Positions 22,268-54,515 of a stretch of 64,000 nucleotides of DNA are shown here, piece after piece. Source of the stretch: Campylobacterota bacterium (lineage in GTDB: Bacteria > Babelota > Babeliae > Babelales > RVW-14); NCBI GenBank assembly GCA_020633995.1, contig JACKCO010000003.1:73503-137502 (forward strand), read 5' to 3'. The notes beneath the pieces were generated by a model. The model saw only the letters and a program-made list of their open reading frames with translations. It had not been told where the DNA came from and did not search any database. The stretch's first letter is position 1. Each line of letters begins with the position of its first letter. A program made the position numbers and the translations under genes.

Positions 22268-24208
22268 TTATACCGCACCACTTCCTTGACCTTGCACTTC
22301 ATCATCTGATGGCACATCAACATCATTACCCTGCTCCTCAGACGGCGACTGATCGTCATCATGAAACGAATGTGACTGACGCGGCTCAATGCCAAGCAGT
22401 TCATACACTTCAGCTGCATGTAGCGTTTCTTTTTCAAGCAACGCCTTAGCTAACGTCTCAAGCTTGTCTCGATTTTCTGTCAGTAATTTTTTACCACGCT
22501 CGTAACACATGGTAATAATCTTTTCTACTTCCTTATCGATACGTTGCATAGTGCTTTCAGAAAATTCACGCCCCGATTGGATGTCCCGACCAAGATATGG
22601 ATGCTCACTTGAAATATTATATTCAATTGGACCCAATGCAGACATACCATAACGAGATACCATGGTGCGTGCAATCTTTGTCGCCTTTTCAAGATCGTTT
22701 GAAACACCACTGGTTTGATCATTAAAAATCATTTGCTCGGCAAGCAACCCGCCAAGGCAAACAACAATGCGTGCCTCCATTTCACTCTGCGTTTGTGAAT
22801 ATTTATCACGCTCAGGCAATGACCATGAAACACCAAGCGCTCGTCCACGAGGAACAATCGTCACCTTATGCAGCGGATCAGTTTTTTGCTGCAACAGGGT
22901 CAACATTGTATGCCCTGCTTCATGGTATGCAGTCATCTCTTTGTCTTCTTGAGTAAACTTGATTGTTCTACGCTCTGCACCAAGCATGATTTTGTCACGC
23001 GCAACTTCAAAATGTCTCATCTGAACGGTCGTTTCATGTTCTTTTGATGCAAGCAATGCCGCTTCATTAATTAAGTTTTCAAGGTCAGCACCAGAAAACC
23101 CTGCAGTACCTCGTGCAATTTTTTCAAGATCAACCTGATCATGCAGCTTCACCTTACGTGCATGCACATTTAAAATTTGCGTACGACAAATCAAATCTGG
23201 AAATGGCACTTCAATGGTTCGGTCAAAACGTCCCGGACGAAGCAATGCTTTGTCCAACACATCTGGACGGTTGGTTGCTGCAAGGACAATGACTGAACCA
23301 GCCTCTGTGGTAAAGCCATCCATTTCTGCAAGCAGCTGGTTAAGTGTTTGCTCGCGCTCGTCGTTGCCGCCACCCATGCCAATACCACGCTGACGACCGA
23401 CAGCATCAATTTCGTCAATAAAAACAATGCAGGGTGAATTTTGTCGTGCTTGTTTAAACAAGTCGCGCACGCGTGATGCACCAACACCAACAAACACTTC
23501 CACAAAATCCGAGCCACTGATACTAAAAAACGGACAGTGTGCTTCACCCGCAACCGCTTTTGCTAGCAATGTTTTACCATTACCAGGCGCACCAGTTAGC
23601 AAAATACCACGCGGTATTTTTGCCCCAATTCGCGTAAATCGCTCTGGACTTTTAAGAAAGTCGATAATATCGAGCAAGTCTTCTTTAACCTCCTCAACAC
23701 CTGCAACATCTTTAAACGTTACATTAATTGAGTTGGGTGAAAAGAAGCGCGCTTTGCTGCGGCCAACATTAAAGATTTTGCCGCCGCCACCAGCGCCACC
23801 TTGTGAATGCCTGAAGTATAAGAAAAAGAGCAATACAAACAGCATAAAAATGGAAAACAAGAAATAGTGCCCGTATGACTGTTTTTCCAGTGGCACGACC
23901 TCAATATTAACACCACGGTCCTCAAGCAAGTTCCAAAACTTTTGTGTTGGGGCAACATAGGCCTCAAACATCTTGTCGTCTTTGAACTTACCCTGTACGT
24001 GCTGGTCTTGAATGACCACCATCTTAACATCGCCATCTTTAACGTGCTGCATTAGCGTTGTATAATTGATATGGCTAACTTCACGATTTATGCTGTTGTA
24101 CCAAAAAAGATACGCCAACCCCAAACATACCATCGCCAAAAGCAACCAGACTGCATTCGGCCCGCGGCCACCAAAGCCACCGCCTCTGCGCATATTGCGA
24201 TTCATCAT
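22268..24208 (-). CDS. ftsH: ATP-dependent zinc metalloprotease FtsH
   Basis: There are two N-terminal TM segments. The AAA module has Walker [19 protein letters not shown], Walker [10 protein letters not shown] and the SRH region [19 protein letters not shown]. The zinc motif HEAGH is present. Confidence 0.97.
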
Positions 24209-40491: not shown

Positions 40492-42294
40492 ATGAAAAAT
40501 GCATTAACATTTTCGCATAGATCTGTACGGCTGCTGCTTGCATTACTTGCAATTATTGGTTTTGCACAAGCTAACGCGGCAACGGTCAAGTTTGGCGATA
40601 CCATTCGCCTGACAGCTGATGTGAATGGCCAGGATTTTCAGCTCCATTCATGGGGAAAAAATTTTTCTCATGAAAAGACTTCCGGGCAACAACAGGTGAG
40701 CGCATGGAAAGCGCAAGATGATAACGACTGGTTTATCGTGATGCCAGAACACGGCCGCTCAGACGATTATAAAAAAGGTGAAGCAGTCAAAGCTGGTGAT
40801 ACACTCAGACTCAGACACAAGGAAACAGGCAAAGAACTTCACTCTCATGACATAAACGTCTATGGGCACCCTGCTCCAAACAACGAAGGACAAGAAGTAA
40901 CCTGCTACGACCCAGACGATGCAAATGATAATTGGGTTCTTGTCATTCGTGGCAAATCTGACGGAGAATGGGAAACCGATGACAGTGTCAACTTCAAACA
41001 CAAGGCAACTAAAAAAAGCGTCTTTTTAAACATTCCAGGCTCAACATTTGACGTCCGCAAAGGAACCGATGCACCAGGACAAGATTTTCAAAATGTTGTC
41101 AGTGCAAAAGAAGAAGACACCCCTTCTCAATGGTTTTACGTCAAAGACATTCAAGAAGTAGCCTCAGCTGAGCAAAAAGAGAACAAGAAAGAAGAAGCAA
41201 AAGAAGAGTCCAAAAAAGAAGATAAAGAGGACGATGACCAACTCGACATGGAGTTTTTTGCTCTGACCAAAAATGTAATGGCAAAGCAACGTCTTAAAAA
41301 TACGCAACAAAAACACACCATCAACTATGGTGACATCATCGAACTTAACCACGTCTATGGTAACGTTCAAATCCACGCCAACAACGCATTTAAGTACAAC
41401 AACGAAGGCGGTTCTGGCCAGGTACAAGTCCAGGGCTGGACAGCTCCAGGCCAAGAAGAAAACTTCTTCATCGTCAAAGGCGCAGATGGTCAAGATGATA
41501 AAGAAGGTCCCGTCAAGAGCGGTGACATTATCCGCCTTGAACACAAAGTTTCTAAAATGAATCTCCACTCACATGCTTCACACCAAAGCCCTAATGGCTT
41601 CGGTTATGAAATTACGCTGTTTGGCAGCAACGGAAAAGGTGACAGTAATGACAACTGGGTTCTGATGGTAATGGACGATGACCAGTTTGGTAATCCTGCC
41701 AAATCAGACACCGAATGGACAACACGTGACAGTGTCAACCTTTATCACCACAACTCGAGTGACAATAAATCTGTGGGTAATGTTTCAGGCAAGCGATTCT
41801 TGACCTGGGGTGGACCAAAACAAATGTTTGATGTTTGGACTACCAACGACAAAAATAGCCCAAAACGCCATGACCAATTTGAGCTTGCTGGTACAGAGCA
41901 TGAAAGTCATTGGTTTGTAAGCGCATTCCACAAAGACACCCCCAAAGAAAAAGAAATGGCTATCGCAACCGAGCCACCTAAAACAGTAACTGCAGACAAA
42001 GAAGATGTGAAAAAACAAGAAGAAGGTGACAAAGACAAAGATAAAGAAGACGAAGAAGAGGAAGTAGTCGCTGACGCACGAAGCGTAAGAACTCGCAGAA
42101 CACGAACGGCTCGTACACGCGGTACAAGAGGTACAACTCGTCGGTCAAGAACATCACGTCCAGAACGCGGAGCACGAGGAACTCGAACCACAAGAACAAG
42201 AGCTACACGCAGCACACGAACAAGCCGTGGCCGTGAACGTGCAGGACGTAGAACAACTCGTACTTCACGCCGCAGTGCGCGTTACGAAGGATAA
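40492..42294 (+). CDS. Exported double-MIR (SDF2-like) protein with basic tail (600 aa)
   Basis: The RBS is AGGAGAGAG. The signal peptide is LLLALLAIIGFAQANA. MIR 1 contains VKFGDTIRLTADVNGQDFQLHSW, DTLRLRHKETGKELHSHD and VNFKHKATKKSVF. A K/E/D linker follows. MIR 2 contains INYGDIIELNHVYGNVQIHAN, IIRLEHKVSKMNLHSHASHQSPN and GKGDSNDNWVLMV. The tail is RTRRTRTARTRGTRGTTRRSRTSRPERGARGTRTTRTRATRSTRTSRGRERAGRRTTRTSRRSARYEG. Confidence 0.9.
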   Translation: MKNALTFSHRSVRLLLALLAIIGFAQANAATVKFGDTIRLTADVNGQDFQLHSWGKNFSHEKTSGQQQVSAWKAQDDNDWFIVMPEHGRSDDYKKGEAVKAGDTLRLRHKETGKELHSHDINVYGHPAPNNEGQEVTCYDPDDANDNWVLVIRGKSDGEWETDDSVNFKHKATKKSVFLNIPGSTFDVRKGTDAPGQDFQNVVSAKEEDTPSQWFYVKDIQEVASAEQKENKKEEAKEESKKEDKEDDDQLDMEFFALTKNVMAKQRLKNTQQKHTINYGDIIELNHVYGNVQIHANNAFKYNNEGGSGQVQVQGWTAPGQEENFFIVKGADGQDDKEGPVKSGDIIRLEHKVSKMNLHSHASHQSPNGFGYEITLFGSNGKGDSNDNWVLMVMDDDQFGNPAKSDTEWTTRDSVNLYHHNSSDNKSVGNVSGKRFLTWGGPKQMFDVWTTNDKNSPKRHDQFELAGTEHESHWFVSAFHKDTPKEKEMAIATEPPKTVTADKEDVKKQEEGDKDKDKEDEEEEVVADARSVRTRRTRTARTRGTRGTTRRSRTSRPERGARGTRTTRTRATRSTRTSRGRERAGRRTTRTSRRSARYEG

Positions 42295-42319: not shown

Positions 42320-42349
42320 TCTATAACAAAAAACCAGGGGGATTTGATA

Positions 42350-44158
42350 ATGAACGGTTCACTTTTTAAACGCTATTTAGCGAGCACGCTTATCCTGATG
42401 GGACTTGCATGTTCATCAGTAAACGCAGCTAACTTTAAAGTAGTTCACGCGTGGTATGGCTTTGATGGCAATGAAACCATCGACGTCACAACAAAACTTG
42501 CTGAGCAGCTCAACAAAGATGGCTACTTAAGCTTTCCTGCGGATATGAACAAATATTATGGCAAGGACCCGATTCCAAACAAAGTAAAAGTAACCGCCTA
42601 TCATCTCCAGACTGAAGCTGGTCACAATTTTCACTTCAGAACCCCTGAATGGGCAGATTCTCACCTTGCAAACATTGTTTCAAATGTTTCTGGCAAATCG
42701 CTCAATCGAGAAAAAGATCCTAAAGATAGAAAACTTCCTTCAGGCTTTCCAGACATTATGCCTCCTGCAGAAATGGAAGCTGTACATGCATGGTACGGGA
42801 ATGAAACCAATGTCGTTATCGACAAAATAAAAGAAAATATAAAAGAATTTGGCTTCATTTACATGCCTGACATTAAAAAGGCATTCAATGACACCGACTC
42901 AAGTAGTAAAAAACTTGCCATCCACTTACGACTAAGAAATCACGACGATGTTGGGCAAATACTCGACGTACATCTACGAGCAGACAGTGATAAACCATTC
43001 ATTTTCTATCCGATCAATCCTGCTGAAACAACTATGGCCAAAGAAGAGAAAAAAGACGAACCTAAAAAAGACGTCGAAGAAAAAGTTGTAGAAAAAGCAA
43101 CAGAAGATACACAAGCGCTTGACATGGACTATTTCGCGCTAACACACAGCGTTGCATCAAAACAATTGCTAAAAAATACGCAACAAAAACACACCATCAA
43201 CTATGGTGACATCATCGAACTTAACCACGTCTATGGTAACGTTCAAATCCACGCCAACAATGCATTTAAGTACAACAACGAAGGCGGTTCTGGCCAGGTA
43301 CAGGTCCAGGGCTGGACAGCTCCAGGCCAAGAAGAAAACTTCTTCATCGTCAAGGGCGCAGATGGCCAAGATGATAAAGAAGGTCCCGTCAAGAGCGGTG
43401 ACATTATTCGCCTTGAACACAAAATTTCTAAAATGAATCTCCACTCACATGCCTCGCACCAAAGCCCTAACGACATTGGTTATGAAATAACTTTGTTTGG
43501 CAGCGATGGCAAAGGTGACAGCAATGACAACTGGGTTCTGATGGTAATGGATGATGACCAAATCGGTAATCCTGCAAAGTCAGATACCGAGTGGACAACT
43601 CGCGACAGTATCAATTTTTACCACCACAACACCAGTGACAACAAAGCGGTCAGCACTGTTTCTGGCAAACGCTTTTTAACCTGGGGCGGACCAAATCAAA
43701 TGTTTGATGTTTGGACCACCAACGAAAAAACTAGTCCAAAACGCCACGATCAATTTGAACTTGCGCTCACCGGACATGAAAGTCATTGGTTTGTAAGCGC
43801 ATTCCACAAAGACACCCCTAAAGAAAAGAAGATGGCAATTGCAACAACACCACCGAAAAAGGTCACCGCTGACAAAGAAGATGTTAAAAAACAGGAAGAA
43901 GGCGACAAAGATAAAGATAAAGAAGACGAAGAAGAAGACACAACCGATGTACAAAGCGTAAGAACTCGCAGAACACGAACGGCTCGTACACGACGTACAA
44001 GAGGCACAACACGCCAAGCAAGAGCACCACGCACAGAACGCAGCACAAGAGGCGCAAGAACAAGAACCACACGCAGCACACGAGCAAGCCGTGGTCGTGA
44101 ACGTGCGGGACGTAGAACAACTCGTACTTCACGCCGCAGCGCACGTTATGAAAAATAA
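42350..44158 (+). CDS. Exported DUF3395-like x2 / SDF2-like MIR protein with basic tail (602 aa)
   Basis: The ATG at 42350 follows GGGGGA (the caller's TTG is at 42344). The signal peptide is LASTLILMGLACSSVNA. The N-terminal modules are FKVVHAWYGFDGNETIDVTTKL..YYGKDPIPNKVKVTAYHL and AVHAWYGNETNVVIDKIKE. The C-terminal half is nearly identical at nucleotide level to that of the 40492 gene. Confidence 0.9.
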   Translation: MNGSLFKRYLASTLILMGLACSSVNAANFKVVHAWYGFDGNETIDVTTKLAEQLNKDGYLSFPADMNKYYGKDPIPNKVKVTAYHLQTEAGHNFHFRTPEWADSHLANIVSNVSGKSLNREKDPKDRKLPSGFPDIMPPAEMEAVHAWYGNETNVVIDKIKENIKEFGFIYMPDIKKAFNDTDSSSKKLAIHLRLRNHDDVGQILDVHLRADSDKPFIFYPINPAETTMAKEEKKDEPKKDVEEKVVEKATEDTQALDMDYFALTHSVASKQLLKNTQQKHTINYGDIIELNHVYGNVQIHANNAFKYNNEGGSGQVQVQGWTAPGQEENFFIVKGADGQDDKEGPVKSGDIIRLEHKISKMNLHSHASHQSPNDIGYEITLFGSDGKGDSNDNWVLMVMDDDQIGNPAKSDTEWTTRDSINFYHHNTSDNKAVSTVSGKRFLTWGGPNQMFDVWTTNEKTSPKRHDQFELALTGHESHWFVSAFHKDTPKEKKMAIATTPPKKVTADKEDVKKQEEGDKDKDKEDEEEDTTDVQSVRTRRTRTARTRRTRGTTRQARAPRTERSTRGARTRTTRSTRASRGRERAGRRTTRTSRRSARYEK

Positions 44159-44179: not shown

Positions 44180-45250
44180 ATGAACTACTCTCGCTTAACA
44201 AAAAGCATTGTCCATCTGCTCAGCATGCTGCTGTGCCTGTCAACAGCTGCGCACGCTGCCCTGACGCAGCCGGCAATGCCAGTTATCGCAAGCTATAACA
44301 AGCAAACTCATCCACAGCAAACCATCAAATATGGCGATGTAATCAATATCCGTCATGCCTACTGCAAGGTGCAACTTGATGGAAGTAGCAAAAAAACATT
44401 TGATTCTGGCAACCGTGAAGTGTTTGGACTGGACGGCAGCGACAACATGCACTCATTTGTTGTGCATGGCCCACACGGCAGTGCCGCTGACTATCAAAAA
44501 GGTGAGCCAGTCAAGCATGGCCACATTATTCGCCTTGAGCCGTACGATTCTAACGCGTTCTTAACCGCCAATCTTAATGTAAGCAGCCCAGACGAGTTTG
44601 GTCCAGAAGTTTCATGCGCAGCAGGTAGCAGCAAGGCGTGTGACTGGATGGTGTTGATGAGCAAAGACGGTATGGCACACACACCAGCAGCTGCAGGCAG
44701 CGCACTGACAACACACGATAATTTTTCACTCTACCACGTAGCAAGCAGCAAAAATGAAGACTCTAAAACCACCTCTGGAAAAATGTTTTTGACTTGGGTT
44801 CCAAACACCGTCTACCAAACAGGTGATGGAAGCATGGGGCACGTCATCTCAATGGGTGATCAAGAAAGCCATTGGTTTGTAAAATCACTCTACGGCCAAG
44901 ATGAAACACCAGACGTTGATGAGCCAGAGGGCCAACAAGTAAGCGTTGCAAAACCAGTTATTTCAGGCGAAGGGCCAGCGATCAGAATAATTGCTGAAGA
45001 AAAAGATCGCGATGCTACACAACCACTTGTTCGTCGTGAACGTCGCCGTCCTGGCAGAACACGAACCATCGAACGTAAATATGGCCGCAAAGGAACTGGC
45101 AGAACACGAGGAGCGCGCTCTGGCGCAGGCATGAGCAGCCGCCGTGACCGTCGAGCAGAACGTGCTACACGTACAAGCACAGCACGCAAAGACAGACGAA
45201 CCGAGCAGCGAGCAAAATATCAAGATTATCTTGAAAGCAAAGGTCGTTAA
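44180..45250 (+). CDS. Exported single MIR-like protein with basic tail (356 aa)
   Basis: The RBS is AAGGGGA. The signal peptide is IVHLLSMLLCLSTAAHA. The diverged MIR module contains IKYGDVINIRHAYCKVQLDG, GHIIRLEPYDSNAFLTANLNVSSP, FSLYHVASSKNEDSKTTSGKMFLTW and ESHWFVKSLY. The tail is RRERRRPGRTRTIERKYGRKGTGRTRGARS...RRDRRAERATRTSTARKDRRTEQR. Confidence 0.88.
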   Translation: MNYSRLTKSIVHLLSMLLCLSTAAHAALTQPAMPVIASYNKQTHPQQTIKYGDVINIRHAYCKVQLDGSSKKTFDSGNREVFGLDGSDNMHSFVVHGPHGSAADYQKGEPVKHGHIIRLEPYDSNAFLTANLNVSSPDEFGPEVSCAAGSSKACDWMVLMSKDGMAHTPAAAGSALTTHDNFSLYHVASSKNEDSKTTSGKMFLTWVPNTVYQTGDGSMGHVISMGDQESHWFVKSLYGQDETPDVDEPEGQQVSVAKPVISGEGPAIRIIAEEKDRDATQPLVRRERRRPGRTRTIERKYGRKGTGRTRGARSGAGMSSRRDRRAERATRTSTARKDRRTEQRAKYQDYLESKGR

Positions 45251-45391: not shown

Positions 45392-46597
45392 ATGTTTAAA
45401 CGAGACTTAGAAAAAATTCTGTTAGAGTATACAAAATTTCCAGTCGTCGCCATTTTGGGGCCGCGACAATCTGGCAAGACAACACTTGCTCAAGCAACAT
45501 TTAACAACTACACCTATGTTTCGCTTGAAGACCTCAAAACACGGGAACTCGCGCTTGAAGACCCACAAAATTTTTTGGCCATGCACGAAAACGAGCATGG
45601 CATCATTATTGATGAGTTTCAAAATGTACCAGACATTCTGTCCCAAATTCAGATTATTGTTGATCAAAAAAAACGCCCTGGCTACTTTGTTTTAACTGGG
45701 TCTCAAAATTTTTTAATGAATCAAGCAATCAGCCAATCTCTTGCTGGACGTGTTGGCATTTTAACATTGCTCCCCCTCTCGCTGCATGAGTTGAATTCAA
45801 ATAACCTACTCACACCCGACGTCAATCAAACAATCATTAACGGCTTCTATCCACGAATTTACGACGAATCATTTTCACCTTCACAACTCTACCCTTCATA
45901 CATTCAAACATATGTACAGCGCGATGTTCGCCAGCTTTCACATGTTGGTGATCTCAATGCTTTTATAAAATTTATAAAACTTTGTGCTGGTCGCATTGGT
46001 CAAATTCTCAATATGTCAGAAATAGCAGGCGTATGTGGCATCAGTACACCAACAGCACAACGTTGGCTCTCAATTTTGCAGGCAAGCTACATCATTTTTC
46101 TCTTACAACCCTACTTCAATAATTTTAACAAGCGCCAAACAAGCGCTCCTAAATTATACTTTTTTGATACAGGCATTGCATGCAGCCTCTTGGATATAAC
46201 ATCGGCAGATCGCCTTGGCGTTGACCGCCTCTATGGCAATATGTTTGAAAATTTTATTATCGCAGACCTATACAAGCAGTACTACACAGTTGGCAAACAA
46301 CCACCTGTATATTTTTGGCGAGACAAAAACGGCAGGCTTGAGGTTGACTGCATCATCGAAGAAGAAAGAACAATCTTTCCCGTAGAAATAAAATCAGGCA
46401 AAACAATAGCAAGTGACTTTTTTACAAACCTCAAAGAATGGAGCCAACTTGCACAAAAAAATAATCTTGACCTTGGCACAAATTTTATTGTCTATGGAGG
46501 CCAGCAGTCACGCACCTGGGACAACTGGGCAACCATTGGCTACCAAGATGCAGGGGTATTACTTGAAAAATATCTTAAACCAACGTCAAATGAATGA
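45392..46597 (+). CDS. AAA-family ATPase with C-terminal DUF4143-like region
   Basis: The ATG at 45392 has an AAAGG RBS; the caller's upstream extension to 45257 runs through the terminator. Walker A is ILGPRQSGKTTLA and Walker B-like is HGIIIDEFQ. The overall pattern (..YPRIYDES.. YIQTYVQRDVRQL ... EVDCII) matches the widespread AAA_14/DUF4143 ATPases as I remember them. Confidence 0.75.
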   Translation: MFKRDLEKILLEYTKFPVVAILGPRQSGKTTLAQATFNNYTYVSLEDLKTRELALEDPQNFLAMHENEHGIIIDEFQNVPDILSQIQIIVDQKKRPGYFVLTGSQNFLMNQAISQSLAGRVGILTLLPLSLHELNSNNLLTPDVNQTIINGFYPRIYDESFSPSQLYPSYIQTYVQRDVRQLSHVGDLNAFIKFIKLCAGRIGQILNMSEIAGVCGISTPTAQRWLSILQASYIIFLLQPYFNNFNKRQTSAPKLYFFDTGIACSLLDITSADRLGVDRLYGNMFENFIIADLYKQYYTVGKQPPVYFWRDKNGRLEVDCIIEEERTIFPVEIKSGKTIASDFFTNLKEWSQLAQKNNLDLGTNFIVYGGQQSRTWDNWATIGYQDAGVLLEKYLKPTSNE

Positions 46598-46620
46598 AAA
46601 CTGTGTTTTCTTCTCGGGCA

Positions 46621-46680
46621 AGAAATTTAGATCCTCTGGTCAATCCCCTTGTCAAGCAAGAGGGCAGGCTTGGTACCGGT
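46621..46680. repeat. Solo copy of hairpin-repeat module H3 (tagatcctctggtcaatccccttgtcaagcaagagggcaggcttgg)
   Basis: The same module occurs at 48674-48716, 49518-49560 and 49934-49980, with variants at 48578-48606 and 53762-53792. Confidence 0.8.
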
Positions 46681-46755: not shown

Positions 46756-48411
46756 TTAGGATTTGATTTTAGGTAAAGGAGTTGAAAAATTATAACCAAC
46801 CGTTTGTGCCAGCTCTTTATACTCAAGACTTAAGCTAGCGTAATCATTTATCGTAATATACCAGGCACCAAACTCACCGCGTAAAAAGTCTTTTGTTTGC
46901 TGGTCTGCATTTTTTGCAATCGCTGCAAGGTATTTTTCCATATGCCTATTAAGCATGTATCGCGCACATGTTACTGTTTGCTGGCCACTTTTCTCACATA
47001 ACATCTCTTGTGTAACAAGATTATGACGCACAAGCATCTCAATGCCATCTTTGTGTTTGTCATAATTCGCACATAAAAAATAGAGTAAGCTCTTATCAGC
47101 ATCCTGACTGCCATCACGCAAGGTCAAACAGCACATTCTGAAATGATCTTTTTGACCTTGCACACCAAGAAGATATGGAATGTGCTGCCAGCCCATTTCC
47201 GAGGTTTCATATTTGAGCAATGCGGCACCGGTAGCAACATCGTCATTTTTTTTGGCAATACCCAATAGCTGCGCAACACGGTCTTTGTAGTTTTCTCGCT
47301 TCTCAGCAGGAATTGTTTTATACGCAAGATCAACAATTTTTTCAACAACTGACGCTTGTCTATTATCCACCGCAATATGACATGCATGAGCTAAATGATT
47401 TTCCCCATACCGAGTCTCATCATTTTGCACATCCCATAGATTTATGAGGTAGTCAACCAATGGAGCATTACCGTTCTTTGCAGCATACAAAAGTATGTTT
47501 TTTTCCCTCTTAAATTCAGTAAAAAGTAAATCATCATTCACATCAATACATTTTTTAACAACCGCATCTTGGCCAAGGTCAAAAGCATGCTCGAGCAATT
47601 TTTTGCTCTGCCCTTTTGCTGATAGATCTTTATCTAGGCTGATTTTAAAACGCTCAGCCTGTGCAAGCAAATAATCTAGTTTTTTAGCATCAACGTTTTG
47701 TTGATCGAGCATTTTGTTTAACTCATCCACAACACTATAATCATAATCGCCCGTCACGGTTTGATACCAAGATGCAACGTTTGCCACCAGCAACACGCCA
47801 ACACCCAGCAAGTAACGCATGTCAGTGCGATAATCACTCGCCTCACGCAATGCACGTGCGAGCACGTATGCATTTTGCAGCGCAGCACGTGTTTGTGCGT
47901 CAGTTTCTGGGTGAATTGCAAGTGCCTCACACATTGCCACAGCACCTGCCACGCATGAAAGCACGTAGTCTTGCAACTGTGAAGGGCTGGCACATTGTTG
48001 ATCTACTAGCTTTTTTTCAAACGTGTGATCCTCTGTTGAGAGTGCATGCAGCCCGTTGGTAAACAGTTGCATCGCATCATAGCCAAACAACAGTCCTTCT
48101 TGAATTTTGTTTGCGTCACGGTCTTGCTCGTACCAGCTGTTGTATGCTTTAACAGCATGGCCTGTCACACGTGCAGCATCACGCACTGCGCAACGTGCGT
48201 ACTGTGCTTTGGTTGAACCACTCCCTTTTTGCGCAGTTACAAACAAATCTGCAAATGTTTCCACTCCTGCAAACACACACTGTGCTTTTTCTGCCTTGGT
48301 TGACACTTTCCAGTTGTCACTAACACTTGGCAAGCTCACTTTAGCGTTACTTTGTGTACTCAGCCCAACACTCAGCACAAGAAGTAACGATTTAAAAAAC
48401 ATTTTACTCAT
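46756..48411 (-). CDS. Exported helical-domain / ankyrin-like repeat protein (551 aa), paralog of 50069-53482
   Basis: The ATG at 48411 (MSKMFFKSLLLVLSVGLSTQSNA, a signal peptide) follows AAAGG. The first ~235 aa are almost identical to the paralog. The C-terminal part has ankyrin-like units (ILLYAAKNGNAPLVDYLI..). Confidence 0.85.
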   Translation of the reverse strand: MSKMFFKSLLLVLSVGLSTQSNAKVSLPSVSDNWKVSTKAEKAQCVFAGVETFADLFVTAQKGSGSTKAQYARCAVRDAARVTGHAVKAYNSWYEQDRDANKIQEGLLFGYDAMQLFTNGLHALSTEDHTFEKKLVDQQCASPSQLQDYVLSCVAGAVAMCEALAIHPETDAQTRAALQNAYVLARALREASDYRTDMRYLLGVGVLLVANVASWYQTVTGDYDYSVVDELNKMLDQQNVDAKKLDYLLAQAERFKISLDKDLSAKGQSKKLLEHAFDLGQDAVVKKCIDVNDDLLFTEFKREKNILLYAAKNGNAPLVDYLINLWDVQNDETRYGENHLAHACHIAVDNRQASVVEKIVDLAYKTIPAEKRENYKDRVAQLLGIAKKNDDVATGAALLKYETSEMGWQHIPYLLGVQGQKDHFRMCCLTLRDGSQDADKSLLYFLCANYDKHKDGIEMLVRHNLVTQEMLCEKSGQQTVTCARYMLNRHMEKYLAAIAKNADQQTKDFLRGEFGAWYITINDYASLSLEYKELAQTVGYNFSTPLPKIKS

Positions 48412-48527: not shown

Positions 48528-48716
48528 TCTGGATCCCGGCTCGGAGGCCGGGATGACGAGTTGGCGGGGCCGGGATGACCCCCTGGTCAAGCAAGGGGGC
48601 AGGCTCGAAGGTTGCTACGATTAGCAAGTTTGCTTACAAAAAAAAATTTGTCATTCCCGACTCTGATCGGGAATCTAGATCCTCTGGTCAATCCCCTTGT
48701 CAAGCCAGAGGACAAC
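48528..48716. repeat. Mosaic of hairpin repeat modules H1 (ggatcccggctcggaggccgggatgac), H2 (gtcattcccgactctgatcgggaatc) and H3
   Basis: Direct reading shows that each module is an imperfect palindrome and recurs in regions 49516-49990 and 53599-53795. Confidence 0.85.
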
Positions 48717-48752
48717 CAGTAGAACAGGTCGCACAGAAAGGTGTAACCATGT

Positions 48753-49139
48753 TTAGATAGAATTTTTCATCTTCATCTGAATAAAATCAAAGACTCTTTT
48801 TGCTGTTTCGATTGCATCCTCTGCTTCTCCTCTGTCGATATCAAAATAATCATCTGGGTAACGAGAATGTATCGCAAATGGATTAAGCTTTTTTACATCA
48901 TCTTTTAGTGCCAGAAAGTCAGCATCTGATTCACAACAAATCTTTAGTAGATATTCTAAATCATGAGTACGCTCTAGTGGGTTTCCTTTAAAAATTAAAA
49001 ATCCCTTCAGAACTTTTTCTGCGCATTGATGAGTGTGATAGGCAACGCAATCAAGTGTATCATCATCGTCTCTTAGGCCCTTGTGTGCCATTTTTAAGTC
49101 ACTTTGTGCCTTAGCAAACCAATCTTTATGCCCTGGCAT
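48753..49139 (-). CDS. HEPN-domain protein (toxin component of a HEPN/MNT pair)
   Basis: The 128-aa sequence WFAKAQSDLKMAHKGL ... YHTHQCAEKVLKGFL ... THDLEYLL ... HSRYPD is typical HEPN helices with an R-x4-H-like region near the C-terminus. It overlaps the upstream nucleotidyltransferase gene by 14 nt. Confidence 0.8.
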   Translation of the reverse strand: MPGHKDWFAKAQSDLKMAHKGLRDDDDTLDCVAYHTHQCAEKVLKGFLIFKGNPLERTHDLEYLLKICCESDADFLALKDDVKKLNPFAIHSRYPDDYFDIDRGEAEDAIETAKRVFDFIQMKMKNSI

Positions 49140-49446
49140 AGAGAACCTTTCCCTCTTTTTTTATCTTGTAACACAACGTTGAAGAATCTGCAGTTGTTTT
49201 TGCAAACTCATCTTTGGTATAAATTAAAAGATCTTTTGGGACTTTTAATTCCCATAAGGCTTCTGCACCCGCATCACCTCTTCTGTGTATTTTTTGGTCT
49301 GACTGATCAATCACAATAAGTAAGTCTAGGTCACTTCCTGCGTCGGGCTGACCCCACGCGTGTGAGCCAAAAAGGTATATCGTGATGGGATTATATGCCG
49401 AAACAAGTTTTTTTGTTACTGCTTCAATCATTTCATTCGATACCAT
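49126..49446 (-). CDS. Minimal nucleotidyltransferase (MNT antitoxin-type)
   Basis: The ATG at 49446 follows AAGGAG. The motif is IYLFGSHAWGQPDAGSDLDLLIV (the GS...D-x-D polymerase-beta-fold NTase motif). Confidence 0.85.
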   Translation of the reverse strand: MVSNEMIEAVTKKLVSAYNPITIYLFGSHAWGQPDAGSDLDLLIVIDQSDQKIHRRGDAGAEALWELKVPKDLLIYTKDEFAKTTADSSTLCYKIKKEGKVLYARA

Positions 49447-49515
49447 GAATAACGCTCCTTTGCCTAAAAGCAGAATCAATTTCGCAATATGCACAAGAAT
49501 TATTTTATTTTAAAG

Positions 49516-49990
49516 GAATTTAGATCCTCTGGTCAATCCCCTTGTCAAGCAAGAGGACAGGTCAGAGGATGCCCCCCTGTAGGCTCGTCGCTCCGGGCTT
49601 GATCCGGAGTCCATTCCTAAAGATAAAACCTATGTTTTTTACTCAAGTATTACCATGGATCCCGGCTCGGAGGCCGGGATGACAAGTTGGAAAGGCCTGG
49701 ATGCCCCCCTGTAGGCTCGTCACTCCGGGCTTGATCCGGAGTCCATTCCTAAAAAATAAAACTTATGTTTTTTACCCAAGTATTACCATGGATCCCGGCT
49801 CGGAGGCCGGGATGACGAGTTGGCAAGGCCGGGATAAGAGTTGGCAGGTTCAGTACTATCAAAAGTGTTTTTGAGGTGCTCGTTGTTAACTCAAATCCAA
49901 CAAAAAATTTGTCATTCCCGACTCTGATCGGGAATCTAGATCCTCTGGTCAATCCCCTTGTCAAGCCAGAGGACAGGTCAGAGCATGACA
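49516..49990. repeat. Largest hairpin-repeat mosaic, including a 132-bp tandem duplication (49567-49698 / 49699-49830)
   Basis: The module order is H3, then [gatgcccccctgtaggctcgtcRctccgggcttgatccggagtccattcctaaa...tattaccat-H1] x2, then a spacer shared with 53649-53730, then H2, then H3. The 80-aa ORF called here (49749-49991 -) is composed entirely of these repeats. Confidence 0.9.
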
Positions 49991-50007
49991 AGTTTGACTA
50001 AAAAGCA

Positions 50008-50043
50008 AAAAGAGAGGCGGCAACATTTCGTCACCGCCTCTCT
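50008..50043 (-). terminator. Rho-independent terminator of the 1137-aa ankyrin gene
   Basis: On the minus strand the sequence reads agagaggcgg-tgacgaaatgttg-ccgcctctct followed by ttttgctttt. The 10-bp stem starts 26 nt after the stop at 50069. Confidence 0.65.
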
Positions 50044-50068
50044 TTCTTTTATTTGCTCCTGATGTGGA

Positions 50069-53000
50069 CTAGTCAAATAAACCAAGGCCCATATCGCCTT
50101 CTTCTTCTTTTTCTTCTGCTACAGGAACCTTCGCATCAACACAGGCCTTTTCAAAAGAGCCTTCTGCTTGATTGATAGGCTCTTTTGTAACATAAAATGC
50201 ATGTTCTCTTGGTTTTTGTGATGTAACCTTGATATACCACGGCTTATCATCACCTACTTCTTTTTGATCCAAGCACGCTTTACCCATGAGCGCAAGCTGA
50301 TTTTTCACATCAGGGTCAAGATCAGGCTTTGACCATTCTGCTCGTATAAATTCAAAGATATTTTTATCTTGCTTATTATCATCATTGTCTATCAATGTCT
50401 TGGCAAGGTACCCATTATTTATCATCCTATGGACAATTTTATGCGCAAAGCCATATTTTTTCTGAGCAAATGCAAGCTGGAGGATATTCAAGCCGTTATT
50501 GAAATTCCATCCTGTAAAATCGTTAGGCTGAGCATAGCGCAAAACGAGATCAATAAGCTGGCCATTATTTTCGTCTGCTTCTCGAATCACATCTCCAAGC
50601 GCATGACATATAACCAACGCATTACCTTGTTTTTGATTATTCAGCACGACCGGCACACCTTGAGTAAACAACGTGCTAAGCTCTGCAGCATTACCACTTG
50701 TCACCGCTTGCTGTACAAAACCTTTAAGCTTTTGGTGCAAAGCATTGGTGTGATCTTGTTGTAGCAGTTGCTGTACGCTCTTTCCAGATGCTCTCAAGGC
50801 CCCAGCAAACGCGTTAACCGTCGTTGCGCTAAGTACTGCTTGGTTTTTTACTTGCTCTTGAGCTTGCTTACGCGCCGCAACTACGTGACGCATTTCAGAA
50901 AACTTACCACCTTGTGCTTCTCCCGCTTCTTCGTCAGGAACTTGAATTATTTCCTCAGTCTCCTTCAGCTTCCAGCCATTCTCAACCTTTTCAAGCAGGC
51001 TGCGAGCCAGATCGTCGTAGGCTTGCTTTGCAGCCTCGGAGTTGTGACTATTTAAATTATATTGATCACACAACGCATCAAATAAATGCGTTTTCTGGTC
51101 ATCGCGACCAACCGTCGCGTACACACCACGCTCGACAAAAGCTTGATGCACAGCGCGTGCAGTAGCTTGGCCACCATCATCTTGACCTATTAATGTCAAA
51201 GCATGCTCAAAATACCGTCCGTTCTGCAGCTGCTCGTCAGGGATTATGTACTGATCGCCATTTTTAGCAGTCAACATTTTTTTTGCTTGGTCAAAGTGTT
51301 TTGCAGTAATGAATCTATGTACAGTATTTGCGTAATCACACTGAACTTCATTTTTAGCAAATGTCAGCACAACATCAATAAGGCCACTTTCTGCGGCAGC
51401 AGTAATCATATCTCCACAATCAATCGTCCTAACATCAAGTTGCTCTCCACCACCTTCATGTGCTGACAACGATTTTTTAAGCAACACGTCAAGTCTATCA
51501 GTTTGGTTGGAATTAACCGCAACCAAAAGTGCTTCTTCAATCTGACCCCGAGTTGGCACACCTTTAACTTTATCGCCATATTCATTTTGATTGTACTGTG
51601 TTGCATTTTCAACCTTGTCAATCATATCATTTGCTTTGTCGAGAACACTGTCAGCTCCCACTGCTTTTGCAAGCTCAAAATGATCAGCAGTCAAGCCTGC
51701 AACGTCACCATGATGAGCTTGACCAAACCACTGCTCAAACTCACTTTGCAAAAAGTATTTTGTTGCTTGATCTGCATTTTTTGCAATGACAGCAAGTTGT
51801 TTTTCTTGACCTCGTTCAGCCAACATTGCACATGCTTGCGTAAGCGTCGTATCTTTCTCGTCAGCTTTGTGCTGCAACATTTGTAAATCGACAAGACCAT
51901 GGCGTGCAAGCATGTCAACAGCATCAGGGCTGTCATACAATGTCTCTAGAAGGCCCTCATGTTCATCGGCTGCTCCTACGTCTTTGCCTCGCTTAAGCAG
52001 ACAGCACATCTTGAAGTAGTTGCGATCACGTTGTGCTTGGAGCAGAGGAGTCAAATCATTATACTGCCCCTTTGTTTCCAATTCATCTTTGGTCATGAAA
52101 CCAAGCAGTGCAGCACCGGTAGCAACATCATCATTTTGCTCAGCAAGCGCAAGCAGTGCATCTTCGCTTGCCTTAAGCGCTTGTAAGTGCTCGTTGTCTA
52201 CGGTCTCGATTTCTGAGTATTCATCTTCTGGTGTCGTTGTAACCTGACCACGACCAACGGCAAACTTGACAATCGCTTCAACCACTGCGGTTTTTTTATT
52301 TTTGATGGCATGCTGAAGTGTTGAATGGTATTCATCGTCATCTTCATCATCGTCGTCATCACCCTCATTGTAAATCACCCAATCAGCATCATGGATCAAC
52401 TTACCTTGCGCATCATTTTGCTCTAGCAAATACGCTACACAGTGGGAATACCCAGCTTGTGCTGCTCGATCGATCATGCACATTCCATCTTTGTCTTCTT
52501 TCTCCAACGTATCCTTACTCACGTCCATGCCAAGCTCGGTGATCATTTCATCACGCTTGCCTGCATCAAGTTTGCACACATCATTGAGTGTTGCTAGTTC
52601 ATCGGAAAGCGTCATGCCTGCAGCTCTGCATTTTTTAACGACAGCTGGTTGGCCAACTACAGCGGCTCGGTCAAGTAAATTTTTTCCTTGTTCATCTACT
52701 GCTTTCAGATCAATGTTAAATCGCTCGGCCTGGGCAACCAAACGATCAAGTTTTTTACCGTCAACATCTTGTTGGTTAAGCATCTTGTCTAACTCACCCA
52801 TCACGCTGTGGTCATGATCACCCGTCACTGCTTGATACCAAGATGCAACGTTTGCCACCAACAACACGCCAACACCCAGCAAGTAACGCATGTCCGTGCG
52901 ATAATCACTCGCCTCACGCAATGCACGCGCAAGCACGTATGCATTTTGCAGCGCAGCACGTGTTTGTGCGTCAGTTTCTGGATGAATTGCAAGTGCCTCA

Positions 53001-53482
53001 CACATTGCCACAGCACCTGCCACGCATGAAAGCACATAGTCATGCATCTGTGCACCGCTGGCAAATTGTGGATCCATTAATTTTTTTTCAAACGCATGAT
53101 CACTCGTTGAAAGCGCATGCAGCCCGTTGGTAAACAGTTGCATTGCATCATAGCCAAACAACAGTCCTTCTTGAATTTTGTTTGCGTTGCGATCTTGCGC
53201 GTACCAGCTGTTGTATGCTTTAACAGCATGGCCTGTCACACGTGCAGCATCACGCACTGCGCAACGTGCATACTGTGCCTTGGTTGAACCACTCCCTTTT
53301 TGCACAGTTACAAACAAATCTGCAAGTGTTTCTACTCCTGCAAACACACACTGTGCTTTTTCTGCCTTGGTTGACACTTTCCAGTTGTCACTAACACTTG
53401 GCATCGTAATCTTGGCGTCACCCTGCACAGTCAGCCCAACACTCAGCACAAGAAGTAACGATTTAAAAAACATTTTACTCAT
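50069..53482 (-). CDS. Exported helical-domain / ankyrin-like repeat protein ending in a eukaryotic ribosomal P-stalk-like tail (1137 aa)
   Basis: The ATG at 53482 has the same ttgATGagtaaa context as the paralog. The signal peptide is MSKMFFKSLLLVLSVGLTVQGDA. The N-terminal domain is conserved. Multiple ankyrin-like units and an acidic run (DDDDEDDDE) are present. The C-terminus is ...VAEEKEEEGDMGLGLFD-stop, read directly from 50069-50119. Confidence 0.88.
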   Translation of the reverse strand: MSKMFFKSLLLVLSVGLTVQGDAKITMPSVSDNWKVSTKAEKAQCVFAGVETLADLFVTVQKGSGSTKAQYARCAVRDAARVTGHAVKAYNSWYAQDRNANKIQEGLLFGYDAMQLFTNGLHALSTSDHAFEKKLMDPQFASGAQMHDYVLSCVAGAVAMCEALAIHPETDAQTRAALQNAYVLARALREASDYRTDMRYLLGVGVLLVANVASWYQAVTGDHDHSVMGELDKMLNQQDVDGKKLDRLVAQAERFNIDLKAVDEQGKNLLDRAAVVGQPAVVKKCRAAGMTLSDELATLNDVCKLDAGKRDEMITELGMDVSKDTLEKEDKDGMCMIDRAAQAGYSHCVAYLLEQNDAQGKLIHDADWVIYNEGDDDDDEDDDEYHSTLQHAIKNKKTAVVEAIVKFAVGRGQVTTTPEDEYSEIETVDNEHLQALKASEDALLALAEQNDDVATGAALLGFMTKDELETKGQYNDLTPLLQAQRDRNYFKMCCLLKRGKDVGAADEHEGLLETLYDSPDAVDMLARHGLVDLQMLQHKADEKDTTLTQACAMLAERGQEKQLAVIAKNADQATKYFLQSEFEQWFGQAHHGDVAGLTADHFELAKAVGADSVLDKANDMIDKVENATQYNQNEYGDKVKGVPTRGQIEEALLVAVNSNQTDRLDVLLKKSLSAHEGGGEQLDVRTIDCGDMITAAAESGLIDVVLTFAKNEVQCDYANTVHRFITAKHFDQAKKMLTAKNGDQYIIPDEQLQNGRYFEHALTLIGQDDGGQATARAVHQAFVERGVYATVGRDDQKTHLFDALCDQYNLNSHNSEAAKQAYDDLARSLLEKVENGWKLKETEEIIQVPDEEAGEAQGGKFSEMRHVVAARKQAQEQVKNQAVLSATTVNAFAGALRASGKSVQQLLQQDHTNALHQKLKGFVQQAVTSGNAAELSTLFTQGVPVVLNNQKQGNALVICHALGDVIREADENNGQLIDLVLRYAQPNDFTGWNFNNGLNILQLAFAQKKYGFAHKIVHRMINNGYLAKTLIDNDDNKQDKNIFEFIRAEWSKPDLDPDVKNQLALMGKACLDQKEVGDDKPWYIKVTSQKPREHAFYVTKEPINQAEGSFEKACVDAKVPVAEEKEEEGDMGLGLFD

Positions 53483-53598
53483 CAAAAACCTTTCGTTTAT
53501 AAAAATGGAAAAAAATGCTTGCTCAACAATATCAAAAAAAATGTTCTTTTAAAATAAATGCTTTTTTAGTTGGGTTTTTTGAAAAAATGAAGAACAAA

Positions 53599-53795
53599 TT
53601 CTGGATCCCGGCTCACAGGCCGGGATGACGCGTGTTGAGGCCGGGATAAGAGTTGGCGAATTCACTACTGTCCAAAGTGTTTTTTGAGGTGCTCGTTGTT
53701 AACTCAAATCCAACAACAAAATTGTCATCCCCGAGTCCCATCGGGGATCTCTGCTTTGAGAATGCCCCTTGCTTGACAAGAGGGCAGGCTTGGGG
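53599..53795. repeat. Hairpin-repeat mosaic (H1 variant, shared spacer, H2 variant, H3 variant with inverted loop)
   Basis: The modules read ttctggatcccggctcacaggccgggatgac, gtcatccccgagtcccatcggggatc and gccccttgcttgacaagagggcaggcttgg. The H2 stem shows compensatory changes relative to 48649-48676. Confidence 0.85.
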
Positions 53796-53823: not shown

Positions 53824-54219
53824 TTAATCAAAAAAGAGTGTCGATAAACGCTTAAAACATTGATAGTGCTGATCAAGTCTTTGCGCAAGAGACTGAGCAC
53901 AATCTTCGTCGTACAAATAAGTTGCAAGATTTCTGTCTTCATGAATACTGGAAAGCTCATCTAAATCTTTTTGCGAAATGACTTCTTGCTCCAAACTTTC
54001 TTTAAAAACACCCTTAGGGCTTGCAATAGTGATACCATGCTTGTCATAAAGCAAATCTTTCATACACTTCCAAAAAACATCATAGCACAGCTCGAAGCGT
54101 TTAATTGCACTATCGCGAACCATCTCATAATCAGCAGCACTCTCCATTTTTTCAAGCGATTCTTGCAAGCGAAGCAAAATCTTTTTTAGTCCTTGTTTGC
54201 GCTTTTCTATTTTTTCCAT
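53824..54219 (-). CDS. Nucleotidyltransferase substrate-binding protein, HI0074-like (HEPN superfamily)
   Basis: The 131-aa sequence LKKILLRLQESL...RDSAIKRFELCYDVFWKCMKDLL...SPKGVFKESL... matches the HI0074-type four-helix pattern. It overlaps the upstream NTase gene by 13 nt. Confidence 0.75.
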   Translation of the reverse strand: MEKIEKRKQGLKKILLRLQESLEKMESAADYEMVRDSAIKRFELCYDVFWKCMKDLLYDKHGITIASPKGVFKESLEQEVISQKDLDELSSIHEDRNLATYLYDEDCAQSLAQRLDQHYQCFKRLSTLFFD

Positions 54220-54515
54220 ACAACCTTCGTTTCACCTATTTCTTGTTTAAAATCCTGAGAAACTCCATTAAAATCAACCACACTAATTTTGTACGGAATA
54301 TTAGATTCTTGAAACATATCGCGTGCTTCCCCAACATCAACTCGTTCAAGTTTTTTGCCGGCGTCTAAAGCCAAATCTATATCAGACCATTCACGGTGGG
54401 TTCCCTTTGCCCGTGAACCATACAAATAAATTTTAGCATCAGGAAAAAGTGCTGATAAAACACGAATAATTTTATCTTTATATTTTTGTTGTACACCATC
54501 ATCGTGCATAGACAA
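54207..54515 (-). CDS. Minimal nucleotidyltransferase, HI0073-like
   Basis: The motif is IYLYGSRAKGTHREWSDIDLALD (GS...D-x-D). The protein is 102 aa and pairs with the downstream HI0074-like gene. Confidence 0.85.
   Translation of the reverse strand: MSMHDDGVQQKYKDKIIRVLSALFPDAKIYLYGSRAKGTHREWSDIDLALDAGKKLERVDVGEARDMFQESNIPYKISVVDFNGVSQDFKQEIGETKVVWKK

Follow-up and report, generated by a model that had tools for sequence, protein, structure and literature searches.

A P-stalk-like C-terminal tail on a predicted exported, ankyrin-like protein of a putative Dependentiae bacterium

The C-terminus of a 1137-amino acid (aa) protein encoded on contig JACKCO010000003.1 (assembly GCA_020633995.1) was compared with the C-terminal tails of the eukaryotic ribosomal P-stalk proteins P0, P1 and P2, which it closely resembles. 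The gene lies on the minus strand of a stretch of 64,000 nucleotides (nt) (positions 73,503 to 137,502 of the contig, forward strand), which was analysed as a whole and is referred to as the window; positions are those of the window unless another contig is named. The open reading frame (ORF) spans 50069..53485, with the ATG at 53482 as its actual start, which yields 1137 aa. The corresponding NCBI entry, MCB9492720.1 (H6679_00420), is annotated as "hypothetical protein" on a 728-kb contig of a metagenome-assembled genome (MAG). The gene, its features and its paralogs are as follows.

50069..53482, minus strand: tail-bearing gene, 1137 aa (ORF with ATG start; 100% identity to MCB9492720.1)
53489..53494, minus strand: ribosome-binding site GAAAGG, 6 nt 5' of the ATG
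53414..53482, minus strand: Sec-type signal peptide MSKMFFKSLLLVLSVGLTVQGDA/K, residues 1–23 (manual inspection; the slash marks the cleavage position)
52733..53413, minus strand: family-specific N-terminal helical domain, residues ~24–250 (paralog alignment; no Pfam match)
51563..52723, minus strand: degenerate ankyrin-like helical repeats, residues ~254–640 (Ank_2, phmmer, structure model)
52331..52360, minus strand: acidic loop DDDDDEDDDE, residues 375–384, within the ankyrin-like region
50135..51652, minus strand: orphan C-terminal extension, residues ~611–1116, absent from both paralogs and mostly helical by prediction
50072..50134, minus strand: P-stalk-like tail AKVPVAEEKEEEGDMGLGLFD, residues 1117–1137 (sequence, partial Pfam match, comparison with genuine tails)
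50072..50092, minus strand: tail core MGLGLFD (stop codon: 50069..50071)
50007..50047, minus strand: intrinsic-terminator-like hairpin of 19 pairs and then a T-run, ~20 nt past the stop codon
46756..48411, minus strand: 551-aa paralog P0002 (MCB9492717.1); signal peptide, N-terminal domain and ankyrin-like region as in the tail-bearing protein, extension and tail absent
800..3559 of L135 (from a 542-kb contig of the same MAG): third paralog P0003 (MCB9493273.1), 919 aa, without the tail

Read on the minus strand, 50069..50116 gives the codons gaa gaa aaa gaa gaa gaa ggc gat atg ggc ctt ggt tta ttt gac tag, which encode EEKEEEGDMGLGLFD and the stop. The C-terminal end of the protein is ...PVAEEKEEEGDMGLGLFD. 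The codons, the end of the ORF and the NCBI product all agree, and the claim of the original prediction that this minus-strand protein ends in a P-stalk-like tail is therefore borne out. Since a terminator-like hairpin and T-run follow about 20 nt past the stop codon, the tail is the true C-terminus of the protein. An acidic run elsewhere in the protein and a 551-aa paralog (46756..48411) that shares the N-terminal part and lacks the tail had been described as well; the run was found as DDDDDEDDDE at residues 375–384, and the paralog aligns with residues 1–610.

P0, P1 and P2 end in an acidic run followed by DDMGFGLFD, and translational GTPases (eEF2, eEF1A) dock there. As a reference set, 121 eukaryotic P0/P1/P2 tails were sampled from a DNA-pattern scan of metagenomes, which gave at least 120 loci, every listed one being a genuine eukaryotic P0, P1 or P2. 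The sampled tails ended in MGFGLFD in 110 cases and in MGLGLFD, the ending seen here, in 11. 'GD' preceded the Met in 5 of the 121, and one sampled P0 ends in GDMGLGLFD (...DEDGDMGLGLFD). The ten positions before the Met contained 5–10 acidic residues in the sampled tails and 6 in the 1137-aa protein. When AKVPVAEEKEEEGDMGLGLFD was aligned without gaps with several real P0/P1 tails, 13 of the 21 positions were identical. On this comparison, each departure from the textbook DDDMGFGLFD is known in genuine P proteins, and the last ~21 residues are indistinguishable from real P-protein tails, inside their natural variation. One apparent exception among the metagenome matches (L067, 125..2300) is a true P1 beside ABCE1 and not a foreign carrier of the tail; on this contig, with a GC content of 28%, an intron-less ABCE1 gene lies back to back with the divergent P1 gene, which suggests a very compact eukaryotic genome, e.g. 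microsporidian or nucleomorph.

The likeness to P0/P1/P2 is confined to the end of the protein. In the last 99 aa, residues 78–98 aligned with positions 66–88 (of 88) of the Pfam profile Ribosomal_60s (PF00428), with a score of 17.1 bits (E=0.008) that stays below the gathering threshold of 28.1; with the full-length 1137-aa protein no Ribosomal_60s match was obtained at E≤0.01. A PDB sequence search matched only the last ~40 residues to a P0 chain, at a marginal E of 0.41. Like P1 and P2, the protein ends in an acidic stretch and then [DE]MG[FL]GLFD, here as EEKEEEGDMGLGLFD and the stop. The N-terminal helical dimerisation domain that anchors P1/P2 to P0 was not found, the N-terminus consisting of the signal peptide and the family-specific domain, nor was an Ala/Gly/Pro-rich hinge found before the acidic tail, the preceding sequence being ...KEPINQAEGSFEKACVDAKVPVA, which the structure model shows as coil at very low confidence. 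For the uL10 rRNA-binding domain and the spine helices that bind P1/P2 there was no Pfam match in the 1137-aa protein. A divergent P protein was considered and rejected on these Ribosomal_60s and uL10 results. What is shared with P0/P1/P2 is a Lys/Glu-rich acidic stretch and then the motif at the very end, whereas the 1137-aa protein is bacterially encoded, has a signal peptide and lacks the dimerisation domain, the uL10 body, the Ala/Gly/Pro hinge and the CK2-site serines. Judged by sequence, the tail is a graft onto an unrelated protein and not the end of a divergent stalk protein.

Chance as the source of the tail is excluded. When the window was translated in all six frames, MGxGLFD occurred once, at the end of the 1137-aa protein, and the degenerate DNA pattern for [DE]MG[FL]G[FL]FD followed by a stop gave one match in the window, even at 2 mismatches; none of 100 dinucleotide shuffles of the window matched the pattern. 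Under a model of independent and identically distributed residues with the amino-acid composition of the window, the probability of the 8-residue C-terminus is 2.4e-10 per protein, and 4.7e-13 when at least 5 acidic residues are also demanded among the 9 preceding ones. About 1e-11 tails are expected by chance within the window, and the same model predicts ~3e-4 proteins with the motif and an acidic run among ~6e8 prokaryotic proteins.

The DNA pattern was also scanned over 185,579 bacterial and archaeal species, using one genome per species, and over the viral sequences of IMG/VR. The prokaryotic scan yielded 8 matching stretches, six of which are short contigs encoding recognisable eukaryotic P0, P1 or P2, either whole or in part; as they lie in published bacterial assemblies (L002, L003, L004, L006, L007 and L008, from Gordonia, Paracoccus, a Proteobacteria MAG, Microbacterium and Nocardioides), eukaryotic DNA has almost certainly contaminated these assemblies. 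One further match is a chance ending, EMGFGFFD, with no acidic run. The remaining one is an orphan protein from a Chlamydiia bin, and the viral scan gave a second orphan:

809..1453 of L001 (JBIIKD010000180.1; the same as L136 and L137), plus strand: orphan of 214 aa in the Chlamydiia bin (DNA-pattern scan)
6508..6804 of L009 (IMGVR_UViG_3300022686_000090; 69.5 kb), plus strand: viral orphan of 98 aa, also present on IMGVR_UViG_3300022673_000037 (L010; 187 kb)

The 214-aa protein ends in DSDEDDMGFGLFD (in a longer stretch, ...NTPDSDEDDMGFGLFD), has no Sec signal and adjoins bacterial genes for Fe-S assembly and a 2Fe-2S ferredoxin; it was assembled identically from three independent samples, and a search for relatives retrieved only itself. 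The 98-aa protein ends in SSSSDDMGFGLFD (longer stretch ...ETDDSSSSDDMGFGLFD) and has a membrane-anchored papain-like protease and a WH2-motif protein as neighbours; here the search for relatives retrieved only the same two contigs. When the viral scan no longer required an acidic residue ahead of the Met, two more matches (L133, L134) appeared, both due to chance and without an acidic run, and the plant-type variant DMGFSLFD had no match in the viral scan. Three unrelated orphans, including the 1137-aa protein, carry the tail, and each is from a sequence that has been attributed to a parasite of eukaryotic cells. Nothing else available argues as strongly as this recurrence that the tail is selected, although it is an imperfect stand-in for ortholog conservation. 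It is conceivable, but on balance somewhat doubtful, that copying of the P-stalk tail is a recurrent, independently evolved strategy by which intracellular parasites seize the docking groove of host translational GTPases or GCN2.

The binding data on stalk tails bear on the possible function of the variant found here. In archaeal aP1, G102, L103, L106 and F107 are required for binding of EF-2 and line one face of a short helix that lies in a hydrophobic groove of EF-2 (PMC5887453). The L103 of aP1 corresponds to the Phe of eukaryotic GFGLFD, and the Leu in MGLGLFD thus matches a functional natural state. An alanine scan with Shiga-like toxin 1 indicated that Ala at any of the last five residues lowers or abolishes binding, while a single Asp-to-Ala substitution is tolerated (PMC3280276). 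The P-stalk tails are furthermore essential to the activation of GCN2, along with domain II of uL10, and human GCN2 is not activated by P1/P2 lacking uL10 (PMC6421407); an isolated tail would therefore be a likelier competitor than activator of GCN2.

The body of the 1137-aa protein was characterized by profile, sequence and structure-model searches. By inspection, the n-region of the signal peptide is basic, its core is hydrophobic, and positions −3 and −1 are G/A; the 551-aa paralog carries the same signal peptide. The protein had been called secreted; this stands as far as the manually read Sec-type signal goes, and the only destination that the signal implies is the periplasm. The N-terminal domain has two moderately hydrophobic helices (148–169 and 201–220, from hydropathy), is very similar to that of P0002 and 31% identical to that of P0003 from the same MAG, and is confined to these three paralogs of one genome. 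Over residues 230–640, Ank_2 (PF12796) scored 23.8 bits (E=6.6e-5; cut-off 27.3) and Ank (PF00023) 15.3 bits (cut-off 21.1); the ankyrin score of the 551-aa paralog was 22.8 bits. With phmmer, ankyrin proteins were matched at E=1e-10 and 1.3e-7 over residues 254–351. The earlier designation as ankyrin-like is weakly supported, the Pfam scores remaining below their thresholds. An AlphaFold2 model, built from a 3-sequence alignment, was all-alpha and of low confidence (mean predicted local distance difference test (pLDDT) score of 48); the ankyrin-like region, also all-alpha, reached a pLDDT of 50–80, and the last ~21 residues were modelled as coil with a pLDDT of 22–30 within this overall poor model. 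The top Foldseek matches in the PDB were helical-repeat proteins (DARPin, ankyrin, TPR and PPR), none of them at E≤0.001.

A word-indexed search of 5.8 billion clusters with the 1137-aa protein retrieved only the protein itself, and phmmer against 1.84 billion representatives retrieved, apart from the protein, the two paralogs that the same MAG encodes and two generic ankyrin proteins. The orphan extension had no homolog among the 1.84 billion representatives and no Pfam match, and matches of the 1137-aa protein in the PDB sequence search had E values of 0.25 or worse. Regular-expression scans of the 1137-aa protein found no catalytic motif of the HExxH, P-loop, Fic, kinase, PLD, PTP or GxSxG type, and no FFAT, CaaX, KDEL or F-box motif. 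An FFAT candidate was rejected for its incomplete core, and a type I secretion C-terminal signal was rejected because an N-terminal Sec signal is present. The sequence EDEYSEI (residues 419–425) conforms to the LC3/ATG8-interacting region (LIR) pattern with acidic residues before it, and the paralog lacks the loop 410–433 (~52184..52255, minus strand) in which it lies; about one LIR-like match is expected by chance for a protein of such size and composition.

The source organism was placed with FtsH (22268..24208, minus strand), the nearest named relatives of which belong to Candidatus Babeliales, Candidatus Dependentiae and candidate division TM6 (66–74% identity over the full length). By this protein the source genome would belong to Dependentiae/Babeliales, and the NCBI label Epsilonproteobacteria/Campylobacterota appears wrong. 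The Dependentiae isolates are obligate intracellular parasites of protists (PMC6561590), and from phylogeny only we infer an intracellular life for the organism studied here. In Chromulinavorax destructans, signal peptides are present in 44% of the coding sequences and in 78% of the 98 ankyrin proteins; they are proposed to act as host effectors and to be exported by Sec, possibly by means of outer-membrane vesicles (PMC6561590). C. destructans encodes no complete metabolic pathway, and cultured Dependentiae rely on host resources (PMC6561590). In view of the Dependentiae ankyrin proteins with signal peptides, a signal peptide combined with a repeat scaffold is the typical candidate-effector format of the phylum. 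Eukaryote-type domains abound in the window, where many proteins with signal peptides carry Tectonin, MIR, Hyd_WA or ankyrin domains, and this fits the mimic reading.

With a probability of roughly 0.45, the tail would be a short-linear-motif mimic that docks onto the host proteins that normally bind the stalk tail. The original prediction of molecular mimicry is corroborated at the level of sequence, by the natural variation of genuine tails, the unrelated body, the exclusion of chance, the parasitic phylum and the recurrence of the tail. According to this reading, the protein would be a Sec-exported, all-helical scaffold with degenerate ankyrin-like repeats and a flexible C-terminus that bears the motif. 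In the host cytoplasm the tail would fold as a short amphipathic element, like the real stalk tail, and its Leu/Leu/Phe side chains would enter the hydrophobic groove of host stalk ligands, most likely the abundant eEF2 and eEF1A, with GCN2 as a possible ligand. The ligand would be tethered to the ~1100-residue scaffold, the protein acting as an adaptor; competition with the ribosomal stalk would be local and a by-product, and the net outcome would be a diversion or dampening of host elongation or stress signalling. The adaptor (tether) role is favoured over that of a stoichiometric decoy because one tail of low affinity is unable to titrate factors that occur at micromolar levels and because a scaffold of ~1100 residues suggests that the bound factor is taken to another place or receives some further partner; a pure decoy is the least plausible variant. 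We infer the export past the periplasm, the access to the host cytosol, the binding, the identity of the ligand and the consequence for the host.

Several observations weigh against the docking of the tail onto host stalk ligands. Ahead of the Met the tail has a single Asp where the textbook sequence has three, and CK2-site serines are absent. With Shiga-like toxin 1 a double Asp-to-Ala substitution weakened binding (PMC3280276), and the lone Asp may lower the affinity for ribosome-inactivating proteins (RIPs). A single low-affinity tail cannot titrate eEF1A/eEF2 stoichiometrically. The Sec signal leads only to the periplasm, and the route from there to the host cytosol is putative; P0003 has a lipobox-like signal (...LALAPLQAC/DG; its gene lies 5' of a ClpB-like gene), and the family may thus be envelope-associated. 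The description of the tail as disordered is weak evidence, given the low confidence of the structure model, and Pfam, model, Foldseek and motif scan found no enzymatic or partner-binding domain that would explain the purpose of a tether. Orthologs of the 1137-aa protein were absent from the 5.8 billion clustered and 1.84 billion representative proteins, and both relatives, from the same MAG, are tail-less, so that purifying selection on the tail cannot be demonstrated; the tail may be very recent. As to the other carriers, the Chlamydiia contig is just 2.9 kb long, which makes its binning uncertain, and the 69.5- and 187-kb contigs are probably from a giant virus of a eukaryote, which is a candidate assignment.

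The same observations can be read in other ways. That the tail was captured recently or arose by convergence and has no selected function, e.g. as a neutral or transient fragment that a fast-evolving paralog acquired from the 3' end of a P-protein gene or cDNA of the host, is unlikely, and it is the alternative to which we give most weight. It would agree with the presence of the tail on one of three paralogs and the lack of an ortholog, with a ~21-residue similarity that reaches into the Lys/Glu-rich hinge (PVAEEKEEE), as a captured fragment would, and with the mosaic structure of the locus, which contains repeats and duplicated genes. Capture, however, accounts for the origin of the tail and not for its uselessness, and the frame, the exact terminal position and the terminator are all intact. 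Moreover, the same tail occurs independently on unrelated orphans of the Chlamydiia bin and the large viral contigs and on no other prokaryotic protein in the 185,579 species genomes, and such a distribution is not as expected of neutral accidents. Quite unlikely, in our estimate, is that the protein is in essence an antagonist of GCN2 and the integrated stress response, its tail competing with the P1/P2 tails and blunting the alarm for amino-acid starvation that a parasite scavenging nutrients provokes; this would be a special case of motif mimicry, with another main ligand. GCN2 is far scarcer than eEF1A or eEF2, and for so scarce a target stoichiometric competition would be feasible. The P-stalk tails are essential for GCN2 activation, which scales with their number, and P1/P2 without uL10 domain II are inactive on human GCN2, so that a lone tail should compete (PMC6421407); the dependence of Dependentiae on host resources (PMC6561590) fits as well. 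Yet the main binding site of GCN2 is uL10 domain II, which is absent from the 1137-aa protein, the same tail is contested by the abundant elongation factors, and a host with GCN2 is presupposed.

A function on the bacterial side, with an acidic-hydrophobic C-terminus that serves as a sorting, secretion or envelope signal and merely resembles a P tail, is improbable. C-terminal signals do appear to be used in this genome, as neighbouring exported proteins share an Arg/Thr-rich C-terminal module, and P0003 has its lipobox-like signal; but a sorting signal should be shared, and the tail is found on no other protein of the window and on neither paralog. In addition, 8 of 8 core positions and the acidic hinge match the eukaryotic consensus, which goes far beyond the needs of a generic signal, and bL12 and the bacterial GTPases do not use the motif (PMC5887453). 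We find it slightly harder still to credit an anti-toxin decoy, in which the tail absorbs ricin- or Shiga-type RIPs from the host or from competitors and shields host ribosomes and the niche of the parasite. Free P-tail peptides reportedly inhibit the ricin A chain by blocking its binding to ribosomes (PMC6162817), and RIPs bind the tail with micromolar Kd values via the last five residues, all of which are present here save for the Phe-to-Leu change (PMC3280276). At that very position, Phe-to-Ala abolished the binding of Shiga-like toxin 1, in a scan that used Ala and not Leu, and only a single Asp precedes the Met, while the loss of two Asp residues weakens toxin binding (PMC3280276). Exposure of a protist host to RIPs is an assumption, and the large scaffold is left unexplained. 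Finally, hardly any probability is assigned to an assembly artefact, i.e. eukaryotic P-protein DNA mis-joined to a bacterial gene. Contamination with eukaryotic P0/P1/P2 accounted for 6 of the 8 matches in the genome scan, but those contaminants are short stand-alone contigs with recognisable P0/P1/P2 bodies, whereas here a stretch of just ~21 P-like codons sits in frame within a contig of 728 kb, and beyond it come a bacterial-type terminator and repeats that are present elsewhere in the window.

In a full-text literature search no paper was found on a bacterial or viral protein with a P-stalk tail, the matches being ribosomal P proteins, docking of RIPs, anti-P autoantibodies and synthetic peptide inhibitors; the original statement that no bacterial effector with this motif had been described agrees with this outcome. 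Mimicry of short motifs is a known class of effector strategy, for instance the FFAT motif of Chlamydia IncV and the CaaX and F-box-like motifs of Legionella and Orientia effectors; we found no earlier paper on mimicry of the P-stalk tail. With these mimics of intracellular bacteria the 1137-aa protein has in common a repeat scaffold that carries a short eukaryotic motif in a terminal, probably disordered segment, and with the Orientia Anks and Legionella Lgt/SidI it shares host translation factors as the (here proposed) target pathway. Orientia ankyrin proteins bind eEF1A (PMC4148323), and the Legionella effectors modify eEF1A enzymatically, neither of them via the stalk handle; the delivery proposed here is Sec-dependent and not by type III/IV secretion. 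No P-tail is reported in the Dependentiae ankyrin-protein literature (PMC6561590). The ankyrin proteins of Chromulinavorax destructans are similar in phylum (by FtsH), Sec signal, helical-repeat body and presumed host-directed role, whereas the present repeats stay below the Pfam threshold and the N-terminal domain and ~500-aa extension are orphan.

Engineered 'zymoxins' reportedly use a stalk peptide as their inhibitory domain. Synthetic P-stalk peptides inhibit ricin (PMC6162817) or Shiga toxin (PMC3280276), and like the tail studied here they present a P-tail, detached from the ribosome, that competes for stalk-binding proteins; they are laboratory constructs with the canonical DDDMGFGLFD, in contrast to the natural gene for the 1137-aa protein. 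The nearest natural analogy is found in phages that encode the whole bacterial stalk protein bL12 (PMC6375957). In that case, too, a parasite encodes part of the factor-recruiting stalk of its host, but as a whole protein that is presumably incorporated into ribosomes, whereas here the tail alone is placed on a scaffold that is unable to join the ribosome.

Through the stalk tail, a universal handle, the eukaryotic ribosome recruits eEF1A, eEF2 and other GTPases; the tail is also the switch for GCN2 and the point of entry for ricin and Shiga toxins. A natural stalk handle made by a parasite would, if the proposed docking is true, represent a new way to manipulate host translation or the integrated stress response and provide a ready-made probe for the biology of stalk ligands. 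It would also define, by a handle of ~15 residues, a previously unrecognised class of effectors that target translation or the stress response. The motif is short and strict and thus usable as a rule for proteome-wide effector searches in Dependentiae, Chlamydiae, Legionellales and giant viruses.

The window further contains TolQ-, TolA- and TolB-like genes and a run of giant proteins that have signal peptides and carry Tectonin, Hyd_WA, MIR, Methyltransf_FA and ankyrin domains. Twelve ORFs share a basic low-complexity C-terminal tail of 40–80 aa that is rich in Arg/Thr/Gln/Ser (e.g. ...TRSTRASRGRERAGRRTTRTSRRSARYEK):

12-2261, 2300-6160, 6226-6987, 7128-8201, 8286-19703 and 19797-20948, all plus strand: ORFs with the Arg/Thr-rich tail
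30925-33246, 33254-36937, 36994-40446, 40492-42294, 42344-44158 and 44180-45250, all plus strand: ORFs with the Arg/Thr-rich tail

At least 10 of the 12 begin with a signal peptide, and most have Tectonin, MIR, Hyd_WA or Methyltransf_FA domains. The Arg/Thr-rich tail looks like a shared C-terminal module, perhaps for sorting, anchoring, nucleic-acid binding or envelope binding.

Two gene pairs of the nucleotidyltransferase/HEPN type flank the tail-bearing gene (48753..49494 and 53824..54515, minus strand). One consists of HEPN and a Polbeta-type nucleotidyltransferase and the other of NTase_sub_bind and a Polbeta-type nucleotidyltransferase, and both look like toxin-antitoxin modules. Short repeated intergenic elements are found at 46589-46673, 48580-48721, 49482-49982 and 53638-53793, in 2–6 copies around both paralogs, and an 80-aa ORF at 49749..49991 that is composed of these elements is spurious. 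The repeat units include the palindromic ...CATCCCGGCC..GAGCCGGGATCC... and CCCCTTGTCAAGC.AGAGG, and they resemble repetitive extragenic palindromic (REP) elements or miniature inverted-repeat transposable elements (MITEs).

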